Notes: generated by a model not told the origin, from the sequence alone. DNA of 64,000 bases from Candidatus Woesearchaeota archaeon (GCA_023898365.1 CP060219.1:932444-996443), one strand, 5' to 3'; shown: positions 1 through 57,800, counted from the first letter of the stretch. Numbers and translations are program-made.

Positions 1-2
1 CA

Positions 3-2849
3 ACAAGTCATAAACTCATCCAAAACAATAAGGCTTTTCAAAAATACCTTGCCAATGGTGTTGAAGTAGAATATCGTTTTAAAGGAAGAATCAAAGGCGA
101 TATTGTTCAACTATTCAACTTTGATAAACCTAAACAAAATGAGTTCCTTGCAATCAACCAATTCACAATTATTGAGAACAAGAAGAACAGAAGACCCGAT
201 ATTCTTTTGTTTGTGAATGGGCTTCCAATTGTTACAATTGAACTTAAAAGTCCAACTAATCCGAAAGCAACTATTGATACTGCTTTCAAACAATTACAGA
301 CGTATCACGAAGATATTCCAACATTGTTCAATTACAACGCTTTTGAAATAATTTCTGATGGTAAAGATACAAGAGCTGGAACACTAACAGCTTCTTATGA
401 ATGGTTTTTGCCTTGGAGAACAGTTAATGGTGCTTTTCAAAAAACCACTTCTATGGAAACTACACTAAGAGGTATGTGTGATAGAGAAACAATCTTAGAT
501 ATTGCAAAAAATTTCTTAACATACACTAACGATAACCAAAAGATTCTTGCAGGTTATCATCAATATAACGCTACAAAAAAAGCAATTCAAAAAACTTACA
601 AAGCGATAGGTCATAACAAGAAGATTGGTGTTGTTTGGCACACTCAAGGTTCTGGAAAGAGCTTTACGATGGGATTCTATACTGCTTTAATGAATAAAGA
701 CCCTAAATTAAAGAATCCGACCATAGTAATTCTTACAGATAGAAATGACCTCGATGACCAACTCCACGACACATTTGCATCATTATCGTTATTTCAAGAA
801 CCCCCTAAGAAGATTAAGTCTCAAGAAGAATTGAAAACTGCTTTGAAAGTTTCTTCAGGAGGAATAATATTTACAACAATACAAAAATTCTTATCAAAGA
901 ACGGTTCAACATTTGAAGAATTATCAAGAAGAGATAATATTATTGTTGTTACAGATGAAGCTCACAGAACCCAATATGGATTTAAAGCAAAACTTCAAGA
1001 AAATGTTCTAAAATATGGTCTTGCTAAATACTTAAGAGATGCTTTACCTAATGCATCATTTATTGGTTTTACGGGAACACCTATTGAGTTTTCTGATAAA
1101 AGTACAAGAGAAGTATTTGGAGAATATATTGACATCTATGATATGCATCTTGCTTTAGAAGACCACCGAGTTGTAAAGATAATCTATGATTCCAAACTTA
1201 TTAAGCTTGGAAAGAATGAAGAGATTTTCAAACAAATTGATGATTTAATCTATGAGTTCACAGAACAAGAAGAAAAAGGTTTAGTAGAACAAGAAAAAGC
1301 TAAATGGTCAACAATCGAAGCACTCGCAGGAAGTGAGCCAAGAATAAGACAACTCGCAAAATCAATAATAAACCATTTCGAGATGCGACAACTCATCGGG
1401 AACGGAAAAGCAATGGTTGTTTGTATGAGTAGAAGAATCTGTATTGCTCTGCATGATGAGATAAAGAAACTCAGACCTGAATATTATCACAAAGATGATG
1501 ACAAGGGAATTATGAAAGTCATCATGACAGGGAGTGCATCTGATGGGAAAGAATACCTTGAACACACAAGAAATAAGGATAGGAGAAAAGAACTCGCAAA
1601 GACTTTCAAAGAACCTAACTCCGACTTCAAATTGGCAATTGTTAGAGATATGTGGCTTACAGGATTTGATGTTCCTTGTATGAATACGCTCTACATTGAT
1701 AAGATTATAAGACATCATAATCTGATGCAAACAATCGCAAGAGTAAACAGAGTTTACAAAGATAAAGAAGCAGGATTAGTTATTGACTTTATAGGGATTG
1801 CGGATGAACTAAGAAAAGCAGTTACGGTCTATACTCAAACAGCCAATAAAGATGACCCATTAAGTTATGGCGACCAAGCAATAGCGATTCTCAAAGAGAA
1901 ATATGAGATTGTAAAAGATATGCTTGATGGATGTAACTATCAAGAATATTATAAAACAAAGAACGCTAAGAAACGAATGGACATCTTCTTCAAGATTGAA
2001 GAACATATATTAAGTTTAGATGATGGAAAGAAACGATTTGTGAGAAACACGCAAGCATTGATGAAATCATTAGACCTTGCAATAACATCCAACGAAGCAA
2101 AACTTATCAGAGAAGATGCCGCTTTATTCCAATCACTTTCCAGGTCATTGATGAAAACAGAAACTGGTAAAGGCGGATTGTCTAAAGGTCTTTCAGATAG
2201 TGTCATCAAACAACTTGTTTCAAAGGCAGTTGAAGCAGAAGGAGAAGTAGATGTTTTCAAACACCTCAACATTCAACGACCAGAAATAAGCATCCTATCA
2301 GATAAGTTCCTAGAAACATTCCAAAACATGGAATACAAGAACCTTGCATTTGAGACATTAAAAAAACTCTTAGCAGACGAGATACGAACAAGGTTCAAAA
2401 CAAATAAGATAGCAGAGAAAAAGTTCTCCAAAATGCTTGAAGAAGCAATACTCAAATACCAGAACAGAAGCATAGACTCAGCACAAGTCATAGCACTACT
2501 TATAGAACAAGCAAAACAAATAAGAGTAGAACTTGACAGGGGAGAAGAACTAGGAGGACTAACAGATGAAGAAATAGCATTCTATGACGCATTAGCAGAT
2601 AATGATAGTGCAAAAGAGATACTCGGAGAAGAAGTACTAAAGAAAATAGCAAGGGAACTCTCAGAAAGAGTCAGAGAAAAAGCATCCATTGATTGGGAAA
2701 GAAGAGAATCAGTCAGAGCAGAACTACGAGTAATGGTCAAAAGACTACTAAAAAAATATGGTTACCCGCCAGACAAAACAGCAATGGCAACAGACCTTGT
2801 ACTAGAACAAGCAGAAGTATTGTCTCACAAATGGGCGGGGGAGGATTAG
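3..2849 (+). CDS. hsdR: Type I restriction enzyme R subunit (HsdR), 5'-truncated by the window edge
   Basis: I translated the frame by hand and it stays open from position 3 to the listed M at 207. The upstream residues ...NKKNRRPDILLFVNGLPIVTIELK give the PD...ExK nuclease motif typical of HsdR N-termini. SF2 helicase motif I is WHTQGSGKS and motif II is VTDEAHRTQ. The C-terminal tail EEIAFYDALADNDSA...KKYGYPPDK is typical of type I R subunits. Confidence 0.9.
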   Translation, partial: TSHKLIQNNKAFQKYLANGVEVEYRFKGRIKGDIVQLFNFDKPKQNEFLAINQFTIIENKKNRRPDILLFVNGLPIVTIELKSPTNPKATIDTAFKQLQTYHEDIPTLFNYNAFEIISDGKDTRAGTLTASYEWFLPWRTVNGAFQKTTSMETTLRGMCDRETILDIAKNFLTYTNDNQKILAGYHQYNATKKAIQKTYKAIGHNKKIGVVWHTQGSGKSFTMGFYTALMNKDPKLKNPTIVILTDRNDLDDQLHDTFASLSLFQEPPKKIKSQEELKTALKVSSGGIIFTTIQKFLSKNGSTFEELSRRDNIIVVTDEAHRTQYGFKAKLQENVLKYGLAKYLRDALPNASFIGFTGTPIEFSDKSTREVFGEYIDIYDMHLALEDHRVVKIIYDSKLIKLGKNEEIFKQIDDLIYEFTEQEEKGLVEQEKAKWSTIEALAGSEPRIRQLAKSIINHFEMRQLIGNGKAMVVCMSRRICIALHDEIKKLRPEYYHKDDDKGIMKVIMTGSASDGKEYLEHTRNKDRRKELAKTFKEPNSDFKLAIVRDMWLTGFDVPCMNTLYIDKIIRHHNLMQTIARVNRVYKDKEAGLVIDFIGIADELRKAVTVYTQTANKDDPLSYGDQAIAILKEKYEIVKDMLDGCNYQEYYKTKNAKKRMDIFFKIEEHILSLDDGKKRFVRNTQALMKSLDLAITSNEAKLIREDAALFQSLSRSLMKTETGKGGLSKGLSDSVIKQLVSKAVEAEGEVDVFKHLNIQRPEISILSDKFLETFQNMEYKNLAFETLKKLLADEIRTRFKTNKIAEKKFSKMLEEAILKYQNRSIDSAQVIALLIEQAKQIRVELDRGEELGGLTDEEIAFYDALADNDSAKEILGEEVLKKIARELSERVREKASIDWERRESVRAELRVMVKRLLKKYGYPPDKTAMATDLVLEQAEVLSHKWAGED

Positions 2850-2850
2850 G

Positions 2851-3282
2851 ATGCCAAACAACAAAATCACAGGAGATGTGGGAGAACAAGAAGTTTGCGA
2901 TTTAGTTCCTTGTCCTAATTGTAAAAAACCTTTGATGACACTTCCAAAGAATTATCCTCTTTATGATTTGCAATGCACTGGTTGTTCATTTAGAGTTCAA
3001 GTTAAAACAAACAACTCTAAACCTAAATCAGAAATTTTTGGTGCAGGGTGGGAGATCATAGATAAAGTTCTAAAATCAGGTTTTATGATACCTCCCTTAA
3101 TTGCAAATTATAGATGGAGTGAAAATGGTGTTGTAAAACAAACGATAATATTTTACCCGTTTATACCTAAATCGCATTTGAAGAAACGACAATTATTACC
3201 TACTGCACGGAGGGCTGATTACAAAATGTTCAACTATGTTGGTCTTGACAAACTTCCTCATTTTGTAGTTTTTGAGAAATAA
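2851..3282 (+). CDS. Hypothetical Zn-ribbon protein with a PD-(D/E)XK-like nuclease signature
   Basis: The start lies 1 nt after the hsdR stop. It has four Cys in two CxxC pairs (CPNC...CTGC). The pattern GDVGEQEV ... YDLQC ... VQVKT fits E / D / (Q)xK spacing of restriction-endonuclease-like folds, with the Zn ribbon inserted between D and QxK. No family name was recognised. Confidence 0.45.
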   Translation: MPNNKITGDVGEQEVCDLVPCPNCKKPLMTLPKNYPLYDLQCTGCSFRVQVKTNNSKPKSEIFGAGWEIIDKVLKSGFMIPPLIANYRWSENGVVKQTIIFYPFIPKSHLKKRQLLPTARRADYKMFNYVGLDKLPHFVVFEK

Positions 3283-4724
3283 TGGTTCTTCTTACCAAAT
3301 CTAAATTTATGAACGGGCTTCAATGTCCGAAGCTCTTATGGAGAGCTAATCAGAAGACTTTGCCTGAAATTACTCTTTCTGATGAGCATAAGTTTGCGCA
3401 GGGTCACGAGTTTGAAAAGTATGTTAAAATGCTTTACCCTGATGGCGTCGATCTTGGTGATTTAGGCTTCAAAGAAAACGTTGAAGCTACAACAAAAGCA
3501 GTTGAAGATAGGAAGCTTATTTTTGAAGCAGGTTTTCAAGTTGGAGAACTATTCGTTCGTTCTGACCTTCTAGAACCAGTTGAAGATGGTTGGAATTTAT
3601 ACGAGATAAAATCATCTTCCGAAGTAAAGCCAGTTCATTATCCTGACCTTGCTTTTCAGAAGTTTGTTTTAGAAAAAGCAGGGCTTACTATCAAGAAATG
3701 TTTTGTTATTTACATCAATAAAGAGTATCAAAAGAATGGAGAAATTGACCCTAATCAGTTAGTTGCAAAAGAAGAAGTAACTGAACAAGTTGATGCGGTT
3801 GAGAATTTGGAAGATAACTCGCAAAAATATTTAGAAATCATCAAAAGAGATACTGTTCCAGATTATGTTATTTCCCAGAATTGCAATAAACCATACGAAT
3901 GTCCATTAAAAGGAGAATGTTGGGGTGCATTACCTGAAAACAATGTTTTACAGATAACTAACTGGAGATTATATTGGAAGTTATTTGCAGAAGGAATTGA
4001 AGATATCAAGGATATTCCAACCGGAACAAAGCTTTCTGATAAAGATCAAGTTATTGTAGAAACTGTAGAGAAAGGAGAGCCTTATATTTCAAAAGAACAT
4101 ATAAGACACTTTCTTAATTCTCTGCATTATCCTTTGCATCATTTTGATTTTGAGACCTTTGATACAGCAGTACCAATATATGATAAATCAAGACCTTATC
4201 AAAAAATACCGTTTCAATATTCATTACATATCGAGCAAGAAGATGGTTCAACAGAACACAGAGAATTCTTGGCAGAAGGAAGTGAAGACCCAAGACCAGC
4301 ACTCCTTGAACAATTAAAGAACGACTTACAAGGAGAAGGAAGCATTGTTGTATTCAATCAAAGCTTTGAAATAAGCTTATTAAACAAACTTGCAGAAGAT
4401 TTTCCAGAACACAAAGAATGGATAACAGCAGCACTTGGAAGAATAGTTGATTTAGCAACACCATTCAAAGCATTCCACTATTACAACCCAGAACAAAAAG
4501 GCTCATACTCAATAAAGAAAGTCCTTCCAGCAATAACAGGAAAAAGCTATTCAGAACTTGAAATCAACAATGGAGGAGATGCAAGTATGCTTTTCTTTTA
4601 CAGCCACATACAACCAAAGCTGGAAAACAAAGAAGAAATAAGAACAAACCTCCTAAAATACTGCGGACTTGACACAGAAGGAATGGTCTGGATAATACAA
4701 AAGTTGAAGGAAATGGTTAAATAA
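3282..4724 (+). CDS. DUF2779-family protein: Cas4-like PD-(D/E)XK nuclease domain with a Cys cluster plus a DnaQ-like exonuclease-like C-terminal half
   Basis: TAATG overlap with the upstream gene. The N-terminus LTKSKFMNGLQCPKLLW matches the characteristic DUF2779 opening (SKS.f..GLQCPK.LW). It also has LYEIKSS (ExK), a Cys cluster CNKPYECPLKGECW, and HHFDFETF (a DEDD-type DxE motif) in the second half. Confidence 0.7.
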   Translation: MVLLTKSKFMNGLQCPKLLWRANQKTLPEITLSDEHKFAQGHEFEKYVKMLYPDGVDLGDLGFKENVEATTKAVEDRKLIFEAGFQVGELFVRSDLLEPVEDGWNLYEIKSSSEVKPVHYPDLAFQKFVLEKAGLTIKKCFVIYINKEYQKNGEIDPNQLVAKEEVTEQVDAVENLEDNSQKYLEIIKRDTVPDYVISQNCNKPYECPLKGECWGALPENNVLQITNWRLYWKLFAEGIEDIKDIPTGTKLSDKDQVIVETVEKGEPYISKEHIRHFLNSLHYPLHHFDFETFDTAVPIYDKSRPYQKIPFQYSLHIEQEDGSTEHREFLAEGSEDPRPALLEQLKNDLQGEGSIVVFNQSFEISLLNKLAEDFPEHKEWITAALGRIVDLATPFKAFHYYNPEQKGSYSIKKVLPAITGKSYSELEINNGGDASMLFFYSHIQPKLENKEEIRTNLLKYCGLDTEGMVWIIQKLKEMVK

Positions 4725-5080
4725 TGGTAAAGAAGAAAGCTCCTCTTGTTATTGAATTAAATAACTCTGAAGCTCTTGCTTTTTCTGGTTGTTTTGGTTT
4801 ACTATTTGCTTTACCCAATATCTATCAAATATTTCTAAATCAAATATTTCCAATAATTATTGAAACATCAACTAACTATACAGGACTATTCAAATTTCTA
4901 TATGCTATTGCAATCATTTTACTAACCTATGAAACATATCATTGGATTATTCAGCTTGTGAAGATAATGAGGAAAACTTATCGCATTCACAAGAATTACA
5001 GGTTGTATGTTTTTAAGCTAGTTATTTTTGGAATGCTTGGTTTTGCAGTAGCTATACTATTAAATAAATGGTTCTTTTAG
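4724..5080 (+). CDS. Small integral membrane protein (about 3 TM segments), hypothetical
   Basis: TAATG overlap with the DUF2779 gene. Three long hydrophobic stretches are present: AFSGCFGLLFALPNIY, FLYAIAIILLTY and FKLVIFGMLGFAVAILL. No recognisable family. Confidence 0.55.
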   Translation: MVKKKAPLVIELNNSEALAFSGCFGLLFALPNIYQIFLNQIFPIIIETSTNYTGLFKFLYAIAIILLTYETYHWIIQLVKIMRKTYRIHKNYRLYVFKLVIFGMLGFAVAILLNKWFF

Positions 5081-6184
5081 AATATCTAAATAATTTAGTT
5101 TAAAATTAATAGTATTAAATATACTTTTTTATATATCTTTAAAAGATTGTTTTAATTTGATATTAATTGAAAACAGTTATACTAAAATATATATAAAAAT
5201 GTATTTAAATTTTCCTCTTTTTTCCTAAATATTTCACTTCATTATTTCTATACGGAAAAAATATCAGTTTTGGTTGATTTGGTACACTATTTTTTTGCGA
5301 TAAAATCCTCTCAATTTTTTTGATCATTCGCACTTTTTATGTTTTTTCTAAAAAACACCCATTTTTTCGACAATTTCTAAAAAAACACACTTTTTTGGAA
5401 TGAATCAAAAAATTGCATCATTTTGTGTTTTTGCGTAAATCGAAACATTTTCTTTTTCAATACGTTGGAACTCTTTTCAGGGGCTTCTCTTCACTTTTTA
5501 CGAAATCTCTTCCAAGAAGGCACATAAGAATTTACTTGGAAAATAGCGATTTCTGTTTAAATTGCCTAAAACTACAGTATTCGAACACTTCAGACCTTCC
5601 AATATGGGAACCCTTATTAGAAATATTTAACGTTGGAAAAACACATCATCGCCTTATTGGAATGATAAATCCTTCATTCTAAGCGAATATACCCTTATAT
5701 CCGAACAATTATCCATTTTTATTAATATTTTCAATACTTTTTTTCTTAACAGTTAGTTCTTGGAAAATTTTTCAAAGAAAACTATCCAAAATTACCATAT
5801 GGTAATGATGACTTAATATTTTATAGTATTGCTTGAATTATATTAATAATGACTAAACTATATTTAATAAAATATATAATCTAATTATTATCTAAATATT
5901 TTAGTTTTTAACTGAAATTTTCAGAGTCAATTATTTTTGAGTCTAGAAACTATATTTTAACAAATTATTAATTAATTTAGTTATTAATTATAAATTTAAA
6001 GACTATAATAAAGTATATGTTAAAAAGCATTATTTGGTTTTCATACATATTTTTGTCTTTGTCTAATTGTTCTTACATGAATAATAAGATGTTCTTTTTC
6101 TTGAGGTCAGAACGGGTAACAAATTTACCTCGAAAAAATTGCTTGTTTTGATGAGTTAAACATTTAAACCCTAACGGTATTTCT
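5081..6184. other. 1.1-kb extremely AT-rich non-coding spacer
   Basis: No credible ORF. Sampled 60-nt lines have under 20% GC (for example 5881-5940 has 10 G+C of 60), against roughly 40-45% in downstream genes. A slightly GC-richer core lies at about 5400-5700. The motif TTCTAAAAAACAC occurs at 5346-5358 and, with one extra A, at 5375-5388. Confidence 0.6.
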
Positions 6185-7213
6185 TTGTGTATGGGTGATG
6201 TTGAGCGAAAGTTTCCACAAGATTATTTGGTCTACGATAAAGAACACCTTCTAAGCGATATCGAGAGTCTTCCCTTGCAAATAAAGGAAGGATTCGCACT
6301 TGGTAAAGGGGTAAAACTCCCAAAACAAACCTTTCGCAATATCATTATTTGTGGTATGGGTGGAAGCGCATTTCCTGGGTTTCTCTTACGAGCATATCTT
6401 CCTCACTTGCCTATTCATGTTCATAATGATTATGACGCGTCGCCTTATCTAACTGACCAATCCTTAGTGATTGCTTCTTCATACTCGGGCAACACCGAAG
6501 AAACACTCTCCGCGTACAAAGCAGCACGAAGAAAGGGCGCAACCATCATATCAATTGCATCGGGAGGAAAATTACAAAAACTTGCCGAATCAGATCATTA
6601 TCCGTTTATTCAATTACCAAAAGGAAAGCAACCTCGCGCAGGATATGGTTATTTCTTTTTTGCCTTACTTGCACTTCTTATTCAAAATAGTCTTGCAAAA
6701 GATCATGATAAAGAGATCAAAGTCTTATTAGCAGAACTTGACATGCGTGCACTGAAAGAGCGAGCAATCATTCTTTCAGGTGAAATTAAGGGAAGATTGC
6801 CGTTAATTTATACAGATCACGCGTTCAAAACTATTGGTATGCGCTGGCGCACCCAATTTAATGAAAATGCAAAAATTATTGCTCATTCAGCAATTTTAAG
6901 TGAGTGTAATCATAATGAAATAGAAGCGTATGTGCATAATACAGCGGATTTCATCGCTTTATTCTTAAGCCATGCAGGAGAACACCGCAGAATAAAAAAA
7001 CGTATTGAGATTACGCAAAAAGTTATTCGAAAGCGAGATATTCCTGTCGTAGAAATTGCAACGCAAGGATCAACGCAATTAACAAAGATGTTTCGTCTTA
7101 TCGCACTTGGCGATTTAACCTCGTTCTATTTAGCGCTGCGCTTTGAACAAGATCCCTCACTCGTGCCTGCGGTTGAGCAGTTAAAGAAAGATTTAGGCCC
7201 GTTCATTGTTTGA
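6185..7213 (+). CDS. Bifunctional phosphoglucose/phosphomannose isomerase (SIS domain)
   Basis: SIS-domain motifs IIICGMGGSAFPG and ASSYSGNTEET. The length and C-terminal half are typical of archaeal PGI/PMI. The listed start is TTG; an ATG follows at 6191. Confidence 0.75.
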   Translation: MCMGDVERKFPQDYLVYDKEHLLSDIESLPLQIKEGFALGKGVKLPKQTFRNIIICGMGGSAFPGFLLRAYLPHLPIHVHNDYDASPYLTDQSLVIASSYSGNTEETLSAYKAARRKGATIISIASGGKLQKLAESDHYPFIQLPKGKQPRAGYGYFFFALLALLIQNSLAKDHDKEIKVLLAELDMRALKERAIILSGEIKGRLPLIYTDHAFKTIGMRWRTQFNENAKIIAHSAILSECNHNEIEAYVHNTADFIALFLSHAGEHRRIKKRIEITQKVIRKRDIPVVEIATQGSTQLTKMFRLIALGDLTSFYLALRFEQDPSLVPAVEQLKKDLGPFIV

Positions 7214-7249
7214 TGCTGCGCGACAAACTTGAAAACGTGTTTTCATTGT

Positions 7250-8230
7250 TTAACGAGCTTCGTCATAACCGCGACATTCCGAAGGTGATTTTCCTTCGTA
7301 TAGTGCTCGTTTTTGTGCAAGAAGATCACTGATTTCTTTGCGAGGATTACTTGCTGGCGCTAATTCTGCAAACAACTCTCCTGTTTGGGGAGGCTCTTCA
7401 TGTAATTGGTGCAGGCCTGTGCCAACCCGTTCCATTAACGTTAAATAGGCAGTTTGCATTACTGTTTTGGCAGGACCGATGTCTGGTGATAGGAGTGTTT
7501 CTCCAATGACTTGCTCAAGAACTACGCCTTCAACAGGGTCTGCTTGGTCATAGCCGTTATTGGTTGCGGTGATGCAAAAAAAGGGAATGAGAATGGGGTG
7601 GCGTGCATTAATTATTTGGTTTGCTTCTTTATATTGTTGAATCCATGTGGCAAGTTCGCGCACTTGCGCTTCGTAATGAGGGATTGCTCTTGGATCCCAT
7701 ATTCTTGTTTGCAAAGAATGAAATGTATATCCTAACACGGAAAGACCTTCAAGAAACCGTAAATCAACATGTTCTTGTGCGGGCTTTTCAAGCGTGCGCA
7801 GGGTGTTCATGAATTGATAAAAAATGCGTGTTTTACTTTCAGGAATGCGTTTTGGAATGGTGCTTTCTCCTCGACTATCAAAACATCCTTCTTTTTCTAA
7901 GGTGCGAAGACTTTGCAGAATTGTTGCAGGAACTACTTGTGCTGCGGGAAAATTTGGTTGCTCGTTTGCGCGCATGCTGATGTAGTCATCGAGTGCTTCG
8001 TTGGTAATATGGTATTGTGAGGCGAAGCTTTCAAGTTTTGCTCGCAGAAGATCTTGAGGTGGCATCCAGGTACGCAGGTTTCTTCCCAGTGCTCTTGCGC
8101 GTTGTTCATCGAGAAGATATTGTTCTCGTGGGTTATCTGGTGGCGCAATATGTCTACTGTCGTTTCCTTGTCGCTGTCGGGGTTGTGGTATTCTTTTTCC
8201 GTTTGGGTATAATTGTATGACCTTCGCCAT
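7250..8230 (-). CDS. Hypothetical protein
   Basis: A 326-codon ORF with normal composition, co-directional with and downstream of gltX and the Cys-rich gene. No motif recognised. Confidence 0.55.
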   Translation of the reverse strand: MAKVIQLYPNGKRIPQPRQRQGNDSRHIAPPDNPREQYLLDEQRARALGRNLRTWMPPQDLLRAKLESFASQYHITNEALDDYISMRANEQPNFPAAQVVPATILQSLRTLEKEGCFDSRGESTIPKRIPESKTRIFYQFMNTLRTLEKPAQEHVDLRFLEGLSVLGYTFHSLQTRIWDPRAIPHYEAQVRELATWIQQYKEANQIINARHPILIPFFCITATNNGYDQADPVEGVVLEQVIGETLLSPDIGPAKTVMQTAYLTLMERVGTGLHQLHEEPPQTGELFAELAPASNPRKEISDLLAQKRALYEGKSPSECRGYDEAR

Positions 8231-8281
8231 GACCTTTAGTGGAACTTCAATCTTTATAAATGTTACTATCAGGTAGTAACA

Positions 8282-8752
8282 TTACGATTTCTTCGTTTTG
8301 ATGCAACTGCAGGGTTCTACTTCAACCTCCTTAGGTAATTCTTTAAAACTATCAAAATAAAGCCGCTCACTAATCTTTTTAGCAAACGGACAACTTAACC
8401 GATGATACTTACCGCCTTGAGCGCTCGCAACAAACTGCTTTTTTGAACCAAGAGAAAGCATACACGAACAAAACACAAAACCACCCGTCCGCGCCTCATC
8501 ACGCGTTGCAAACACGAGCTTATTCTCCTTGCCGATCCGCTTAGCATACGGACAACTAGGCACATGGACTTTGTTTGAACCGCGAGAAGCAAGAAAAGAA
8601 CCTTCAACCGCCTCATGTGTTTTTACGTGCTTTGCAAGTTGGCGTCGAGAAAAGGTTACATTGCAACCTTTACAGAAGAACTTGATATCATCATTGCCGC
8701 GTACATCCCCGCCACAGATGGGGCAGCCCTTTGCAATGAGTTCAACACTCAT
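8282..8752 (-). CDS. Cys-rich zinc-binding protein: N-terminal zinc ribbon plus two Ada-like H/C-x3-C...CxC repeats
   Basis: CPICGG...CKGC forms a ribbon. It is followed by two internal repeats, KVHVPSCPYAKRIGKENKLVFATRDEARTGGFVFCSCM and KYHRLSCPFAKKISERLYFDSFKELPKEVEVEPCSCI. These resemble the Ada N-terminal-type metal-binding module. Confidence 0.5.
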   Translation of the reverse strand: MSVELIAKGCPICGGDVRGNDDIKFFCKGCNVTFSRRQLAKHVKTHEAVEGSFLASRGSNKVHVPSCPYAKRIGKENKLVFATRDEARTGGFVFCSCMLSLGSKKQFVASAQGGKYHRLSCPFAKKISERLYFDSFKELPKEVEVEPCSCIKTKKS

Positions 8753-8791
8753 GACCTGATCAATAATGAGCTTATTTAAAGAATTTGTGGT

Positions 8792-10429
8792 TTAATGAGC
8801 AAACCAAAACGTGTTCTTACTGTCTTTTCTGCAGAATCCAAAGCGTTCAAACTGAATAATTTCACCGTTTGCAAGCTTGGCAACCTCTGCTTCTGCCTTT
8901 CCCGAAACCACAGTCGTATCAGGATTCATCACTGACACCTCAACAAGAGATTCATGAACAGGAAGGAAGTGAATAATTTTCTTGCCCTTCCCTTTAAACT
9001 CTGCAAAATTTTCTGAAACAAAAACAAACGAACCATTCTCCTTTTTCACATTGCAATAATCAATAAGGCGCACCACCTCTCCGTCCTGAATTGCTTCAAC
9101 ATCATCCTTAGCTAAGAAAAACTCATCACAGGTAACCGGCAAGACGCGCTCTTTGTTTTCATCGCTTGGCAATCGCTTAAGATGCACATCCTTTAGCGGC
9201 GCGCCAGTAATCGTTACTTTAGTCAATGGCTCAGGAATGAAAAAATATCGTTTTGCACTCGTATCAAGCACGCGTTTATTATGCATGATTAAATCATCCC
9301 AGGTCAGCATCGATTCGCTCTTTGACAATCCCGTGCTTAAAAGAAAACTTGTCAACGCTTCTGGCGTAAACCCTCGTCTGCGCAAAGCAACCAAGGTGAC
9401 AAGCCGAGGATCATCCCATCCAATGAACTCATGAGCAGCAATCTTCTCTCGAATGGTGCGGCCACTTGTTTCAGCACCCGCAATGTTAAACCTACCAAAC
9501 TCATACGTTTTTGTTACGCGAAGCCCCAGTTTTTCTTGAATCCAATGCTGCAACTCAACACGCAATTCAAACTCTTTGCCGCGAATACGAAACGTGATAC
9601 CATTTTCTGCATCAAGAATGGCCGTAGCAAAATCATACGTAGGCCACGTGCGAAACGCACTTCCAACATGAACATGCGGCTCATCAATGAGGCGAAGAAT
9701 GGTCGGATCAGTCATGGTCGTGTTTTGATGCGCCATATCAATCTTCAAACGAAGCACTGCTTCTCCAGCTCTTGCTTCTTCCAAGAACGAAAACGGTCTG
9801 TTTTCTTGAGCGCATGTACAACGTTCTTTTTTCTTTCTGCCCGCATGCATTTGCTCAGCAGAACACGTGCACACATACGCAAGCTTCTTTTCAAGCAACG
9901 TTTTTGCGTGCGCAATAATTTGAGCAAGATAATCACTTGCGATCACCAGTTTATCCCAAGAAATGCCAAGCCACGTAAGATCTTCTTGAATAATATCATA
10001 AAATTCTTGTTTTGCCAAGAGAGGATTCGTATCGTCAAGGCGCAAAATAAATTGTCCGCCTTTTTGCTTTGCAAGTAAATAGTTCACATACGCTGCCTTT
10101 GCATGACCAAGATGCAAATACTTGCTTGCTTCAGGTGGAAAGCCAGTCACCACCTGATCAGGCAGATCAAGAACCGCAAAGACGTCGCGCTCTTCTTTCT
10201 TTTTCTCAAGACGTGCAGGATCAAGACGTTCGAGTTCGATTCGCTGCTCTTCAACTGAAAGCGCATTTACTTCATCAACAACAGAAGAAAGCAGCGCTTG
10301 CATGCCCTTCATATCTTCTTTGCAAGAAGGAAACTCTTTAACAACCGCGCCGACAAGTGCTTTTGGATTTGCTTTACCATGATAACGAACAGCATTCGTT
10401 AATGCAAGCAATCGAATAAAGTCTTTCAT
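8792..10429 (-). CDS. gltX: Glutamyl-tRNA synthetase, archaeal/eukaryal type
   Basis: Class I HIGH region FPPEASKYLHLGHAKAAYVNY. The 545-aa length and anticodon-binding beta-barrel C-terminus are typical of archaeal GluRS. Confidence 0.88.
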   Translation of the reverse strand: MKDFIRLLALTNAVRYHGKANPKALVGAVVKEFPSCKEDMKGMQALLSSVVDEVNALSVEEQRIELERLDPARLEKKKEERDVFAVLDLPDQVVTGFPPEASKYLHLGHAKAAYVNYLLAKQKGGQFILRLDDTNPLLAKQEFYDIIQEDLTWLGISWDKLVIASDYLAQIIAHAKTLLEKKLAYVCTCSAEQMHAGRKKKERCTCAQENRPFSFLEEARAGEAVLRLKIDMAHQNTTMTDPTILRLIDEPHVHVGSAFRTWPTYDFATAILDAENGITFRIRGKEFELRVELQHWIQEKLGLRVTKTYEFGRFNIAGAETSGRTIREKIAAHEFIGWDDPRLVTLVALRRRGFTPEALTSFLLSTGLSKSESMLTWDDLIMHNKRVLDTSAKRYFFIPEPLTKVTITGAPLKDVHLKRLPSDENKERVLPVTCDEFFLAKDDVEAIQDGEVVRLIDYCNVKKENGSFVFVSENFAEFKGKGKKIIHFLPVHESLVEVSVMNPDTTVVSGKAEAEVAKLANGEIIQFERFGFCRKDSKNTFWFAH

Positions 10430-37913: not shown

Positions 37914-38043
37914 TCCCCGCTCCCGGATTTGAACCGGGGACACGTCGGTATCAGCTGACTGATAGTCATTCACGAGGAAAGCTCCTTAGTCCTACCAGCG
38001 AAAATCTACAGCCGACCGCTCTACCAGGCTGAGCTAAGCGGGG
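37914..38043 (-). tRNA. tRNA-Tyr (GTA) with an intron of about 56 nt at the canonical 37/38 position
   Basis: Hand fold of the reverse complement: CCCCGCT-TA-GCTC-AGCCTGGTA-GAGC-G-GTCGG-CTGTAG[intron]A-CCGAC-GTGTC-CCCGG-TTCAAAT-CCGGG-AGCGGGG-A. The C1:G72 pair is the archaeal/eukaryal Tyr identity pair. Confidence 0.8.
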
Positions 38044-45962: not shown

Positions 45963-46055
45963 TGCTCCCGCCGGGATTCGAACCCGGGTCGTCGCCTTTC
46001 TCCAAATGAAACATTCGAGAGGGCGACATGATTGGCCGGACTACACCACAGGAGC
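45963..46055 (-). tRNA. tRNA-Glu (CTC) with an intron of about 18 nt in the anticodon loop
   Basis: The reverse complement begins GCTCCTGTGGTGTAGTCCGGCCAATCAT, the typical archaeal tRNA-Glu 5' half. It continues TCGCC-CTCTCG[AATGTTTCATTTGGAGAA]A-GGCGA, then CGAC, CCGGG-TTCGAAT-CCCGG, CGGGAGC-A. Confidence 0.8.
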
Positions 46056-51878: not shown

Positions 51879-54800
51879 TCACTTATGGTTGTGCAAGTGA
51901 CGATGCTTTTTCTTGTCATGCCACCAATGGCTGACAACAATCGCAAGGATTGCAAGCAAACCAAGGGCAAGGAATAACGCACCAGTTCCTTTTTGGCTGA
52001 GAAGATCAGCTAAACCTTGACCTTCATCGTCAGTATCGCTCGTGTCAACATCTGTGGTATCAAGTTGTTCGCCAAGACCGTCACCATCATTGGTTGTATC
52101 AGCAACACTTGCAGGCTCCTGATCAGGTATGGTTTCAGGTGCAGTTTCTACTTCTTCTTCAGGCTCTTCTTCAGTCGCTGGAAGCGATGGACTTGAGGAG
52201 GAACTAGGTGTCGTTTCCTCTTCTGCTGGTGTTGAGGATCCAGGACAAGCAGTTGCTCTCCAGACTCCTGAACAGATGTAACCACTATCACGATAGACAT
52301 TCAAACTATCATAACAACCTTGCGTTACCGCGGCGTTGGTGAAAATGTCCGCACAAAGGAGTCTGTCTCCACTCAAACCATAGCTTGAGAAGTGCGTCAC
52401 ATTTGCCCACACATAGTTATGTGACTCATTCACGCCTGTTGCATTGACAAAGTCCATCGCTGAGGATAACCGAGACCACGTATGGTTTGTCTCATTATAC
52501 CAACTCAGGAACAGTCCTGTTTCATTCAAACCAGACTCGTTTACTTCTTCATCCGTATAATACATGCGCAAGATCACCCATCTGATAGCAGCTGTCAAAT
52601 CAGCACTCTCATCAAAGGTGATGTATTTGAGCGAATCATTGATAGTTGTATTATCATACGGACTTTCTTCATCCAGCGTAATGTTCATTGCACCATTTCC
52701 AACAGAAGCATTTGTCGAAATGTTCACCGTAGCATTAACTCGTGATCCGTTAATCACAATGCTTTCATTTGCATTCGCTTCGATGTTTTCAAATCTGACC
52801 ACTTCAACAACACTTACGTTCGTCCTTGTTCTTACCACATTACCTGCAAGGTCGATAATAGATACATTAAATCTATATCTGCCAAGCGTGTCAAATGGCT
52901 CAAACGTGTATGTATACCTATTGTTTGTTGGTGATAATGTATACGCAGTCCTTGTTCCATTTGGATCTGTCACATTCAATGCAGCATACAAGCTTCCCGT
53001 TGCCGAGAAGTTAAGTGTCACTTCATCAACACCTTGTTGTGGTCTTGCAGGAAGAGCAAGAGCTGCTTGCGTTACAACTGGCGCTGTCGTGTCAACATTA
53101 ACCGTTAATGTTTTTGTTGCTTCAACATTACCCGCAGCATCAACAGTGCGATACTTGATCGTTCTATTATTCGTTTCCTTAAACGTATAATTCGTAGCTG
53201 CAACCCATCCAGTTGTACTGTTTCTCCAGATAAGTGTTGTTCTGTTTGAACCACCACTTGTTGAAGTAAACGATGCAAGCACGTTAGTTGTGTAATAACC
53301 GTTTCTTCCATTCACACTTGAAGGTGAAAGAGTGTAACTTGTTACGGGCACCGTACTATCACGATAGATATAATCTGTGCTCGTGTTTGTCTTACCACTT
53401 TCATCTGTTGCAACAACCGTTATGGTGTTGTTCGCATTATTGGTTAGCGATATTCTCTTATAATACACAGTTCCATTATACGACGCAACTAAACCGTTCA
53501 CACGAACATCTTTCAAGTTAGTATCATTTGCAGTAGCAGTTACATTAATGCTGTTTGCTGTTGTGTACGCTGGTGTGATGTTAAACATCATCTCTGGCGT
53601 TACACTGTCAACCACAATGGTTACTACGCTTGTCACATTATACCCTGTTGAAGAGTTTGCCCATACATATAAGGTAAGTGAAGCAGATTCTACTCCATTA
53701 ACAGTGTAATTTGCAACTCCACCGCTTATCGATGTTGGCGTTACGTTATCTGTTGAATTAAACCAGGTAGTGTCTGAGTTCATCACTTGAATGTTCACCA
53801 AACTACCATTACTTAAGTAATCACCATTGCTAATGTTAAAGACTATGGTTGGCAACGTGTCATTAATAACCACACTATAACTCGTATCTTCAACAGTATT
53901 ACTATACACATCTTCTGCTCTGATGGTTACCGTATATGAGCCATCTGTTGCTGGAAGTGTTGACCAGGTTCCCGTATAAGTTGATCCTGATGCGGTCATG
54001 GTAACATTCGATCCATTCAAATCTGCGGTTACACTTGTCAATGGATTCGTGTCAGTCACGCGCGCAGTCACCGTCACACTCGTTGTTGTTGTTCGTGCAG
54101 GATTTGGTGTTGCGTAAATATTGCTAACAACTGGCGAAGCGTTATCATAGTTAACGTATGCAGTTGTGCTACCTGCATTTCCAATTCCATCTCCAACTTG
54201 AACTGCAATTGTGTTCACTCCTTGTAAGAAAGAAGTGATTGTGTAATTCCAGTTGGTTCCACTCACATTGGCAACGGTCGTGTACGCGCCGCCATTAATA
54301 CTGATATTTATTGATGACGTCGTTTCACTTGTGTTACCAATTACCATCAGCGTGCTTGACGAATAATTCAATCCATCGCTTGCAGGTGTTGTTATCGTGA
54401 CTGTTGGCAACGTATTATCTACAATCAGTCTTACTGAAGCAGTGTGTGTTAAAGCACCATGTTCAGTCGCCCTAAATGAGAGGTTATATGTGCCATCACT
54501 AATACCTGCCGTATCCCAGGTGTACGTGAAATTATACAAGGTATTATTTGCAATAAATCCTTGCGACGTGCCATTTCTAAACACTTCCATGACCACACCA
54601 GGTGCAGAACTGCTCACATTAATACTTTGTATTCCTGAAACTGTTTGGTCGTTGGTATGTGTTAGTACAGAAACTACAGGTGCTGTCGTGTCAACAATAA
54701 CTGTCTTCGTGTATTGTTTTCCCGTCACTCCGGAATTATTATTTCCCGCATTGTCAACCGAGTACGCAATAATATTGTAGGTTCCATCACTGTTCAAGTT

Positions 54801-57800
54801 AAATGGTACCGTGTATGCCGTGTATGAAGTTCCACCGTTTGTTGAATAATACGTTCCAGCAATGCCCGAGTCACCATAGAGTTCTGGTTCTGTAACGGTA
54901 AGTGCAACTGTTGCTGCTGTTACATAGACGCCGTTTGATTTAGTTCCATTAATTACTCCCGTAACTGTTGGTGCGACTTTATCGATAGAGTACGAAACAT
55001 TTCCTGTGGTCATGGTGCCAAGCGTATCATTTGCTCGGTAACGCACCACACCAGTTCTGGTCACATTAAATGGTGCAGTATATGTTGTCCAAGATCCATC
55101 TCGTATTCTATATTGTAAGGTTGCCACATCACTTACTGCATCAACAGCTGACAAGTTAAGGAGTATATTTGTTGTGTACCAACTATTATCTCCTTCAGTG
55201 CCAGTCCAAATTGTTGGCGTGATAACTGGTCCTGCTGTGTCAACCGTTACATTGTAGGTGGATGATACACCAAGATTTGCGCTGTTGTCTAAGCACGTAA
55301 CATTCCAATCATATTGACCATCAGCTGCAAACGTGTACGCGTAGGTGTCTGCAAGACCGCTTGTCATTGATGCGTTGGTTGTTGTATTAATCAACTCATC
55401 AGTGCTGTTGTAAATGTTTAGTGTGCAACTAGCCAAACTCAATGCGTCAGTTCCTGTGTATGTAAAAGTTACTGCTCGTGATGTTGTCGCAGTATCATCT
55501 GCAGGTAAGGTTAATGCCACGCTTGGTCCGGTCGTATCATTTACTGAAATATTAATGATGGTGCTTGCAACAGATTGTCCCGCTAAATCATAGACGGTTA
55601 ATGACAACGCAACGCTTGATTCAACGTAATTTGCTGCGTTTGTCCAGGATACTGTCGTGTTCGCATCAGACGTAAACGAAACATTTGCTTGTCCAACACC
55701 ATTTTCTGCAAATTCAATATACCACGGATTCGCTTCGGTGACATTGATAATAAATTGCACCGCTTCTGATGAGTTAATTGAACTATTTGCCATAACTCCC
55801 GTTCTGTTTGCAGTTAATGCGTTAATTACTGGCGCAACTGAATCAATACCGATGTTTTGTTGGTTTGCAGTTTCCACGTTACCTGCTAAGTCAACACTAT
55901 AATACGTAATCGTCGTGTTTCCTTCACTTGAAACAGTAAATGGTGTCTGATCCCAATTCACAAGCGAACCATTGTTCACCCAGGTATTATTCGCATATAA
56001 TTCAGTGACACTAAAGTTTACACTAACACTTGAGGTATACCACGTGTTTGATCCTTGCGTTCCTGTTAGACTTATAGTTGTAACAGGATCGGTAAGATCA
56101 ACGATCAACGTTCGAGCTGTTGAGTTGGCCGTGTTTCCTGCTGCGTCCGTGCATCCAACAAGCCATGCATAGGTTCCTTGCGCAAAGCCAGAAACAGTGA
56201 TGTTCTGATTTGCAGCTGCAGACATTGAAGCATTAGTTGCATTCAAACTACCATTTACGTAAATACCGCAACTCAACGTTGCATCGTAAGCATCGCTCAA
56301 ATCAACGGTAAATTTCTGCGATGAAAGGTTCGTATACGCAGTTGCTGCAGGCGATGAAGCAGTTACCGTTGGAACGGTGGTGTCTACAACCGTTAACGTA
56401 ATGGTGCTCGTATTTGCCCACACTGAACTATCATTAGCTTGCATAGCTTCAACCTTGAACGTGTACGTGCCAGGTGTTGTGTCGCCAACAGTAAGCAATG
56501 CACTTCCTGATGCGGAGCTATCAAGGGTGATGTTACTTGCGTTTACTGTTCCCGTATCTGCACTGTTTATGTTGTACAATGTCAAGTTATACAGTAGCGC
56601 GTCAAGTGTTCCATTGTTGGTTACCGTCACAAGGAAGTCTTTCGTTGTTGATTCGTTAACTGAGGCGCTCGTTGCATTTACTGCAATGTGTACGCCGTAA
56701 ATCTCAGCTTCTGCAGTAGTAAAGGTATATTGTCCTGTTGTGTTACAGTTACCAGTTGCATCACAGCTTGTTACCGCATAATAATACAACGTGCCATTAA
56801 GCAAACTGCTAATAGTAAAGTTGTGTGCAGTAACTAAGCTTGCATTGCCTGTTGAACTACCGAGAGCAGATGTTGTGCCGTAGTTAATACTGCTATTTGC
56901 TGCTTCATCAGTAAGCCAGCCTATTGAGACAGACGTATCTCTTATGCTTTGATTTGTAACAGCAGTAATCACCGGCGCAACAGTATCGTTAACCGTTAAG
57001 GTCAACGTTGTAGTTGTAGCAGTAACAGTTGGCTCATCGTTCTTTGTTGCAGTAATAGTAAACTGGTATGTGCCAGGCGTCGTATCTCCAACAGTTAAGC
57101 TAACAAGTGCGCTTGCACCAATATCAAGCGTGACATTGCTCGTGTTAAGCGTTGCTGTATCAGCACTATTCGTGTTTACTCTGGTGATGTCATACGTGAC
57201 ATTATCGAGCGTTCCGTTATTTGTGAATAGCGCATAGAACACTGCAGTCGTTGATTCTGTTGCACTTGCAGTAGCACTAACAACAGTTGCATTCACATCA
57301 GCTCCTGAGGGAACAATTGTTGCTGCTGTTGTTACGGTGTATGGTCCTGTCGTGTTACAATTGTCATCTCCATCACAACTGGTAATATTGTAATAATACA
57401 ACGTGCTGTTAGTCAAACCAGTAACAGGAACGCTATGGTTTGTTGTAAGCGTTGCATTCGTAACAACACCATCACTTAAGTCAACCGTTGTACCATACGC
57501 AATGCTTGCATTCGCACTTTCATGTGTGGTCCAATTAACCACAAACGAAATGTTCGTGATACTTGCATTAACTACGCTTGAAATAATAGGCGCTTGCGTA
57601 TCCACAACAACCAACGTAATTGTTGGCGTCGTTGCAAACACCGCACCATTAGTAGACTGCGTAGCAGTTACCGTAAATTGATAGATGCCAGCATCAGGAT
57701 CACCTACCGTCAAAAGCACATCAGCACTAGCGCCGCTATCAAGCGTTAATGATGAATCATTAATCGTTGCAGTTGTCGCACTGTTAGCGTTAGTTCTGGT

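Follow-up and report, generated by a model that had tools for sequence, protein, structure and literature searches.

The 64,000-nucleotide (nt) stretch of a Candidatus Woesearchaeota archaeon genome described here (GCA_023898365.1, CP060219.1:932444-996443; "the window" refers to this whole stretch) opens inside hsdR, the gene for the restriction subunit of a type I restriction-modification (R-M) system, and hsdR is followed by three genes that encode proteins of 143, 480 and 118 amino acids (aa). The 143-aa protein is a compact relative of the endonuclease DpnI, the 480-aa protein belongs to the DUF2779 family and combines a Cas4-like nuclease with an exonuclease, and the 118-aa protein is small and hydrophobic. 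We conclude that nt 1-5080 are probably the 3' part of a horizontally acquired defence island of low guanine-plus-cytosine (GC) content, in which three co-transcribed, functionally independent accessory genes have accreted at the 3' end of a restriction operon. The original prediction for this DNA regarded the three downstream genes as one undescribed defence module. This is not borne out by their distribution, as the three genes do not travel together, whereas each of them recurs beside restriction systems.

Layout and composition of the restriction block

The four open reading frames (ORFs) lie on one strand and are packed end to end over nt 1-5080. The spacing given in the original prediction was recovered exactly: a single nucleotide separates the hsdR stop codon (TAG, 2847-2849) from the start codon of the 143-aa gene (ATG, 2851), and TAATG sequences at 3279-3284 (overlap at 3282) and 4721-4726 (overlap at 4724) couple the 143-aa gene to the DUF2779 gene and the DUF2779 gene to the 118-aa gene. 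Gaps of 1 nt or less were also found in 8 of the 31 co-directional neighbour pairs elsewhere in the window. Thus, tight spacing is common in this genome, and the packing argues for co-transcription rather than for a shared function.

The GC content is 0.348 for hsdR, 0.336 for the 143-aa gene, 0.351 for the DUF2779 gene and 0.283 for the 118-aa gene. All four values are more than two standard deviations (sd) below those of the 51 other genes called in the window (mean 0.416, sd 0.030, minimum 0.354), and GC at third codon positions is shifted in the same way (0.23-0.27 in the block vs 0.338 ± 0.042 for the other genes). The block ends in an AT-rich spacer (Table 1) in which no convincing ORF, tRNA or Rfam family was identified. 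From position 6185 on, the genes have housekeeping functions, including a phosphoglucose isomerase-like protein, glutamyl-tRNA synthetase (GluRS), RimK, a class II aminoacyl-tRNA synthetase, Trm1 and aIF5B. The low GC of all four genes, together with the housekeeping genes directly after the spacer, leads us to interpret the block as a foreign island. The earlier description of a low-GC accessory island that terminates in an AT-rich spacer therefore holds (28-35% GC in the block genes and 23.6% in the spacer, compared with 41.6 ± 3.0%). The spacer itself may be a degraded island edge, or a long regulatory or origin-like region. The sole repeat noted in it is a 20-nt AT-rich palindrome at 5121-5204, and a scan of nt 1-9000 for repeats or att sites bounding the island returned chance-level short repeats only. 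The closest homologues are annotated as Woesearchaeota or Nanoarchaeota, two tRNAs presumably contain introns and the source contig measures 1.13 Mb; the host is thus a small-genome archaeon of the DPANN type.

The hsdR frame is open from nt 3 to its stop codon, and about 70 N-terminal residues lie beyond the window. The encoded protein matched the Pfam families T1RH-like_C (E 4.7e-109), SWI2_SNF2 (E 5e-73), HSDR_N (E 9.5e-37) and T1R_D3-like (E 4e-20), PADLOC REase_I (E 3.5e-303, model positions 74-1024 of 1029) and TIGR00348 (E 8e-163, 543 bits vs a cut-off of 285). The N-terminal nuclease, SF2 motor and C-terminal assembly domain that define HsdR are all present. In related loci whose hsdR is 45-47% identical to this one, genes for HsdS- and HsdM-like proteins precede it.

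The three downstream genes are not a conserved module

Neighbourhoods of the 143-aa gene were compared in 80 loci from 80 species (copies 63-83% identical), and those of DUF2779 in 15 other contexts (copies 56-87% identical), gathered from a single-protein metagenome scan, which gave 12 loci, and from exact-protein look-ups. DUF2779 is adjacent to the 143-aa gene in none of the 80 loci, although two have a DUF2779 gene 4-8 kb away, and the 118-aa gene was found in none of the 80. Similarly, neither the 143-aa gene nor the 118-aa gene occurs in any of the 15 DUF2779 contexts. The closest relatives of DUF2779 (87%, 76% and 73% identical) and of the 143-aa protein (80-83%) are all encoded without a partner. 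The sizes of the three families also diverge, with 11 homologue clusters for the 118-aa protein, at least 1257 for the 143-aa protein and more than 4288 for DUF2779. When PADLOC was run on the block it returned single-gene matches only (REase_I, mREase_II and a weak Cas4).

A three-component defence system, in which the 143-aa nuclease, DUF2779 and the membrane protein act with or downstream of HsdR, would account for the common strand, the 1-nt gap and two 1-nt overlaps, and the shared low GC. In an exact-protein look-up the same arrangement recurred only in two metagenome contigs (L001 and L002, about 2 kb, which likewise begin in hsdR), although these are 100% identical and represent the same population as the window. 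Such a system is nevertheless very improbable, given the lack of co-occurrence in the 80 and 15 independent loci, the nearest relatives that stand without partners, a membrane protein that is nearly unique and spacing of a kind that is frequent elsewhere in the window. Because the genes do not co-occur in either sample, the trio does not qualify as a conserved multi-gene system. Among the signs against a module that the original prediction had named were homologues that never co-occur and homologues scattered among housekeeping genes. The first is what we found and the second is not, as each gene recurs by R-M or other defence genes. This agrees with the accompanying idea that a type I R-M locus serves as a landing pad that collects accessory immunity genes.

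A Cas4-like nuclease fused to an exonuclease, repeatedly located behind restriction genes

The 480-aa protein matched Pfam DUF2779 (PF11074) over residues 286-410 (E 1.5e-45, 154.9 bits, cut-off 23.3) and Cas_Cas4 over residues 92-177 (E 3.3e-5, 24.5 bits, cut-off 22.7). A weak match to the UU173 family of NCBIfam was also found, and PADLOC gave weak Cas4 matches only. The AlphaFold2 (AF2) model is of high confidence (predicted local distance difference test, pLDDT, 93.6). Foldseek placed its N-terminal half with Cas4 (4r5q and 8d3l), RecE and MGME1, and its C-terminal half with 3'hExo, TREX1 and the exonuclease domain of DinG. Invariant in 30 homologues (58-87% identity) are four cysteines in the Cas4 pattern (C15, C201, C207 and C213), the nuclease motif D95...E108-x-K110 with Q126, and the DEDDy set D289-x-E291, E363 and Y460-x3-D464. 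The Cas4-like half is probably an Fe-S nuclease that acts on 5' ends. Earlier work classified the family as RNase-H-like family F.17, predicted to combine a 3'-5' exonuclease with DUF83 (PMC3985635). No cas gene or array was seen in the block of the window, based on the ORF list and a repeat scan of nt 1-9000 (no dedicated CRISPR search was made), and the 15 related contexts likewise showed no cas gene, as judged from Pfam lists and scans of the neighbouring genes.

Genes of R-M or type IV restriction systems adjoin DUF2779 in 9 of the 15 contexts (10 of 16 with the window included), and in 3 of the 15 the gene comes directly after hsdR, DpnII or GmrSD genes. In L083 it follows hsdM-hsdS-PDC-S13-hsdR at a distance of 2 nt, and in L095 it follows a type III series with an overlap (Mod-241 aa-Res-274-321-DUF2779). 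A Dam-like methyltransferase (MTase) and a DpnII restriction endonuclease (REase) precede it in L116, where a 110-aa protein and SduA_C (Shedu) are encoded downstream. In L118 it lies 4 nt behind GmrSD and is followed by a C5 MTase / MwoI-like gene, and in L088 it is followed by HsdM-like and HsdR-like genes. In L112 a C5 MTase, Eco47II and ASCH genes are located beside DUF2779, with genes for a 111-aa protein and Shedu after it, and MTases adjoin it in L085 and L100. Other contexts contain HEPN and SNF2 genes (L086), a MORC-like ATPase and nSTAND (L094), a nucleotidyltransferase (L099), an integrase, a type IV secretion system pilin and HNH (L102), or small ORFs only, with no family (L087 and L090). 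Distant bacterial members are found on plasmids of Campylobacterota and others, amid genes for nucleases, WYL, OLD-type and AAA proteins and toxin-antitoxin genes. Neither of the two descriptions of the family cited here (PMC3985635, PMC13621843) mentions a position behind restriction genes.

Two further arrangements were noted around DUF2779. The order DUF2779, 110/111-aa gene, SduA_C is shared by L112 (7001-9830) and L116 (6001-8813), with different R-M genes upstream. The small proteins are 68% identical to each other and have no Pfam family, and the series is possibly a conserved unit, or possibly the product of an insertion hot spot upstream of DUF2779. In L090 (6286-8855; also L091, 3683-6252) the last ~85 nt of the DUF2779 gene are present four times in tandem register. 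These copies are 64-100% identical and 632-970 nt apart, three of them end in a stop codon, and small unrelated ORFs lie between them. The pattern looks as though small cassettes had integrated one after another at the gene's 3' end. This type of repeat is not present in the window, which has one copy of the gene end.

The main rival explanation takes DUF2779 to be a housekeeping repair or recombination nuclease (involved in end resection) that either sits beside an insertion hot spot or mends self-inflicted restriction breaks, with the 143-aa gene as an unrelated, solitary gene of restriction type. MMSYN1_0389, a DUF2779 protein with Cas4-like and DEDDh/y domains, is quasi-essential in the minimal Mycoplasma JCVI-syn3.0 (PMC13621843), in line with this explanation. 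The very high conservation across DPANN lineages (58-87% identity) and the lack of viral copies in IMG/VR fit this explanation as well, as do the Shedu series that L112 and L116 share despite different R-M cassettes upstream, which is expected next to an insertion hot spot, and the attachment-site-like repetition of the 85-nt gene end in L090. However, DUF2779 is often found overlapping a co-directional restriction gene or 2-15 nt behind one (L083, L116, L118 and L095), it occurs on plasmids, and in the window it shares the foreign low GC of hsdR. Given that no pair of DUF2779 contexts has conserved synteny beyond the island, and given the low GC in the window, we interpret DUF2779 as accessory cargo and not as a core gene beside a hot spot. 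Overall, the repair explanation seems unlikely.

A compact DpnI-like nuclease

The 143-aa protein matched Pfam DpnI (PF06044; E 1.2e-12, 48.3 bits, cut-off 26.7; profile positions 23-152 of 183) and mREase_II, the PADLOC model for methyl-directed type II REases (E 1.1e-6). In a Foldseek search of the PDB with the AF2 model (pLDDT 90.3), structures of DpnI were the only significant neighbours and took all three top places. The best match, 4kyw (E 4e-8), has a TM-score of 0.73 relative to the query (TMq) and 0.43 relative to the target (TMt), and the N-terminal domain of DpnI alone is covered. No winged-helix domain was identified, as the protein ends at residue 143 and the Pfam match at position 152 of 183. 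All domain assignments of the original prediction stand. Its statement that the genes belong to no named system does not apply to this protein, which is a member of the named DpnI / Dam-replacing class (PADLOC mREase_II).

Residues were equated with those of DpnI by profile alignment, and their roles were taken from the literature (PMC3424567, PMC4117772). The helix glutamate E25 of DpnI corresponds to E12, the catalytic D53 and K66 to D39 and K52, and the Zn-binding cysteines to C21, C24, C42 and C45, which are arranged as pairs before and after the PD aspartate D39. Residues L129, R135 and W138 of the methyl-binding cleft correspond to L115, R121 and Y124, and the metal ligand E64 to Q50. 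Across 28 homologues these aligned positions of the active site, Zn site and methyl pocket show little or no variation, and the four cysteines are invariant. A HMMER search of 1.84 billion representatives (50% identity) returned 200 matches, of which the full-length ones are nearly all 140-160 aa long. Clustering at 90% gives at least 1257 family clusters, which share 65-85% identity with the query and come from DPANN archaea, bacteria of the Candidate Phyla Radiation (CPR), Gammaproteobacteria and others. On the evidence of sequence and model, we regard the protein as a member of a compact, highly conserved DpnI subfamily that lacks the winged helix, and as a predicted minimal, monomer-type endonuclease directed at methylated adenine.

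Q50, which takes the place of E64, does not vary among the 28 close homologues and is shared by at least 90% of 22 distant ones, and a glutamine at this position is nearly invariant down to about 25% identity, including in P0394, a 254-aa protein with a C-terminal extension. Because it is nearly invariant across the wider family, Q50 looks like a family trait and not like an inactivating mutation. The monomeric REases HinP1I (D..QxK) and MspI (D..NxK), which have the same substitution, are reportedly active. An alternative is that the 143-aa protein is catalytically dead and serves as a reader of methylated DNA or as a regulator, for example one that targets the adjacent restriction enzyme. 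Substitution of the equivalent residue abolishes DpnI activity (E64A; PMC3424567), and the winged helix that is missing here cooperates with the catalytic domain of DpnI (PMC4117772), as would suit a dead protein. At the W138 position, Tyr or His in DpnI homologues is compatible with partial activity (PMC4117772). The dead-protein alternative is nonetheless a distant prospect, as E12, D39 and K52 vary little or not at all, and an enzyme would be expected to keep a full active site under purifying selection. The near-invariance of the glutamine, which extends to P0394, also counts against it, and most copies have no neighbouring restriction gene to regulate.

An R-M gene lies within four genes of the 143-aa gene in at least 27 of 75 loci, a lower bound as many contigs are short. 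In seven loci a co-directional type I hsdR is the first or second gene before it (L011, L023, L028, L033, L075, L078 and L082). These span archaea (Iainarchaeia), CPR and Proteobacteria (Pseudomonadales), and some also encode HsdS, HsdM or a YgjP-like peptidase. A type III Mod-Res pair precedes the gene in L048 and L081, with Res at -1, and type III Mod and Res are encoded downstream in L013. Type IIG enzymes and MTases flank it in L034, L052 and L069, an EcoRI-type MTase and GmrSD-HNH are found by it in L029, L050, L059 and L079, and a GmrSD-HNH fragment alone in L027. HsdM or N6_N4 MTases occur nearby in 12 further loci. Overall, the immediate neighbours vary widely, 69 and 72 of them representing 78 and 100 Pfam families, and the restriction linkage is stronger for DUF2779 than for this gene. 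The R-M lineages involved are in part the same. The Mod and Res proteins of the DUF2779 locus L095 (1563-6218) share 46-50% identity with the Mod-Res pair upstream of the 143-aa gene in L048 (5820-9756), and the HsdR-like protein of the DUF2779 locus L088 (13505-15802) is 69% identical to the one encoded before the 143-aa gene in L082 (7442-9745). It is as if the 143-aa and DUF2779 genes were interchangeable add-ons of the same R-M lineages.

A Bro-N protein that matches PADLOC PDC-S13 (E 1.5e-124) is encoded between hsdS and hsdR in L083 (6001-6831). A copy 46% identical to it is found in L074 (21-866), directly upstream of the DpnI-like gene. PDC-S13 is therefore one more mobile gene that accompanies R-M systems.

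Pattern scans of IMG/VR with the family profiles identified no relative of the 143-aa protein and no viral copy of DUF2779, and PHROGs contained nothing significant for the block proteins. A viral origin of these two genes is thus unsupported. There was also no real match to the 143-aa protein among PLSDB plasmids. The window shows no depletion of GATC, with 220 sites vs 232 expected.

A lineage-restricted tail gene

No family was identified for the 118-aa protein in Pfam, PADLOC, NCBIfam or PHROGs, and its homologues are 58-67% identical. The protein had been described as having three transmembrane segments. A Kyte-Doolittle scan supports one strong hydrophobic segment (92-118), and the other two (~17-36 and 54-70) are weak segments read by eye from the same scan, so that three segments are plausible. 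In other loci, too, the gene closes a short operon and overlaps the gene before it, although the preceding genes vary. It is located behind hsdM-hsdS in L105 and L106, behind the gene for a 313-aa PD-(D/E)XK-like/GcrA-like protein in L107 and L115, and behind the gene for a Cys-rich protein in L114. We regard it as a lineage-restricted tail gene. The genes that follow DUF2779 in L112 and L116 (110/111 aa), L083, L095, L100 and L102 were considered as possible relatives and are unrelated. The 313-aa protein (L107, 656-1597; L115, 674-1615) combines a PD-(D/E)XK-like N-terminus (HPDL...IEVK) with a C-terminal GcrA-like domain and a very basic tail.

A possible role of the block in defence

If the block functions in defence, its genes would provide layered, independent activities that are expressed together with hsdR. 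The type I R-M system would attack unmodified DNA. By homology with DpnI, the 143-aa enzyme may bind and cut foreign DNA that carries adenine methylation in a context like Gm6ATC (m6A, N6-methyladenine), which is methylated DNA that a methylation-sensitive R-M system cannot restrict. The arrangement would follow the logic by which mrr and mcrBC flank hsdRMS in E. coli K-12. DUF2779, with one nuclease for each strand polarity, may process or degrade DNA ends, including those produced by the neighbouring restriction enzymes. Its address beside enzymes that produce ends, which is an association only, suggests that it could finish restricted DNA in organisms that have neither RecBCD nor AddAB.

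An extended form of this proposal makes DUF2779 a portable "finisher" behind type I-IV restriction genes that would degrade the resulting DNA ends, or reduce them to short fragments, and so boost immunity in organisms without RecBCD or AddAB (DPANN archaea, perhaps CPR bacteria and Campylobacterota plasmids), with the 143-aa nuclease as a second add-on that would cover methylated invaders. We put this forward tentatively and consider it doubtful as a whole.

We favour independent accessory genes in a foreign restriction island as the best explanation for the block, and our confidence in it is fair. Several observations weigh against this explanation. The type I system is seen here from hsdR alone, with hsdM and hsdS outside the window. 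R-M neighbours are absent from about two thirds of the loci with the 143-aa gene, which has housekeeping genes among its neighbours. The counts of R-M neighbours are uncorrected for the background density of R-M genes in DPANN genomes, and the 15 DUF2779 contexts form a small sample, picked by the length of the contigs. The glutamine in place of the metal ligand E64 could reduce or abolish cleavage by the 143-aa protein. For products of defence genes, both nucleases show unusually high conservation (60-87% identity between phyla and, in the case of the 143-aa protein, also between domains), and the quasi-essential DUF2779 protein of JCVI-syn3.0 points to housekeeping DNA metabolism in at least some lineages.

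The results are of interest for two protein families. In DPANN archaea DUF2779 has a reproducible address, by or behind four restriction types and with Shedu, which provides a testable hypothesis for a family known by domain description. If active, the 143-aa protein would rank with the smallest restriction enzymes that depend on modification and might serve as an m6A-specific reagent, and its subfamily is common to archaea and bacteria with small genomes.

Other features of the window

Also encoded in the window is a 4009-aa protein with many immunoglobulin (Ig)-like repeats and fibronectin-like repeats of the purple-acid-phosphatase-N / PhoD-N type. It is probably a giant surface protein, typical of DPANN archaea. 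A Cys-rich 156-aa ORF with repeated C-x2-C and C-P-(Y/F)-A-K motifs lies between an unassigned 326-aa ORF and the gene for GluRS. Two over-long tRNA matches are presumably intron-containing archaeal tRNAs.

Table 1. Coordinates of features identified in the window.
Feature	Position (nt)	Strand	Description	Basis
hsdR	1-2849	+	Type I restriction subunit, 5' end cut by the window start	HSDR_N, SWI2/SNF2 ATPase, HindI-like C-terminal domain
143-aa gene	2851-3282	+	DpnI-like PD-(D/E)XK Zn-nuclease, catalytic domain only	Pfam DpnI, PADLOC mREase_II, AF2/Foldseek
480-aa gene (DUF2779)	3282-4724	+	N-terminal Cas4-like PD-(D/E)XK nuclease and C-terminal DEDDy 3'-5' exonuclease	Pfam, motifs, AF2/Foldseek
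118-aa gene	4724-5080	+	Small hydrophobic protein, narrow distribution	No family match; 11 homologue clusters
Spacer	5081-6184	.	AT-rich, non-coding, 1.1 kb; right edge of the low-GC block	
156-aa ORF	8282-8752	-	Cys-rich protein	No Pfam match
Over-long tRNA	37914-38043	-	130 nt	Rfam; missed by ARAGORN
Over-long tRNA	45963-46055	-	93 nt	Rfam; missed by ARAGORN
4009-aa ORF	51879-63908	-	Probable giant surface protein	Repeat content

Comparison with known systems

The 143-aa protein is most similar to R.DpnI, a type IIM enzyme that depends on Gm6ATC (PF06044; 4ESJ, 4KYW). The two have in common the catalytic fold, the Zn-Cys4 insertion, the helix Glu, the catalytic D and K and the methyl-pocket positions. 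R.DpnI is 254 aa long and has a C-terminal winged-helix reader, whereas the window protein has 143 aa and no such reader, and the nearly invariant Q of the subfamily takes the place of E64.

The 480-aa protein has the same architecture, a Cas4-like PD-(D/E)XK nuclease joined to a DEDD(h/y) exonuclease, as MMSYN1_0389 and the F.17 and UU173 families; solo Cas4 nucleases are also among its nearest known counterparts. The Mycoplasma DUF2779 protein keeps two of the Cas4 cysteines (PMC13621843), whereas the DPANN clade keeps four. Cas4 of CRISPR systems is encoded in cas operons; unlike it, DUF2779 is located beside no cas gene in any locus seen.

RecBCD and AddAB degrade DNA ends in bacteria. The likeness of DUF2779 to these complexes would be one of operation only, in that a RecB/Cas4-type nuclease is combined with a second exonuclease so that both strands are attacked, and that there is a link to enzymes that make ends. 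A helicase domain and Chi-type regulation are not known for DUF2779, and homology is limited to the Cas4/RecB nuclease fold.

In the immigration control region of E. coli K-12, mrr and mcrBC flank hsdRMS, and prrC sits inside the prr locus. The window resembles the K-12 region (mrr-hsdRMS-mcrBC) in that its type I restriction gene lies directly beside the gene for a predicted methyl-directed nuclease, with other accessory genes. The genes for PrrC, the YgjP-like peptidase (L028) and PDC-S13 (L083 and L074) are accessories of type I loci too. Those of the window belong to other families and, instead of being inserted between hsd genes, come after hsdR, linked by overlaps of stop and start codons. 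PrrC is controlled by the R-M enzyme, whereas nothing suggests such control of the accessories in the window. Thus, accessory genes on R-M loci are already known from prrC, the E. coli K-12 immigration control region, YgjP and PDC-S13; what is new is the specific, recurrent linkage of the 143-aa family, and especially of DUF2779, to several types of restriction system.

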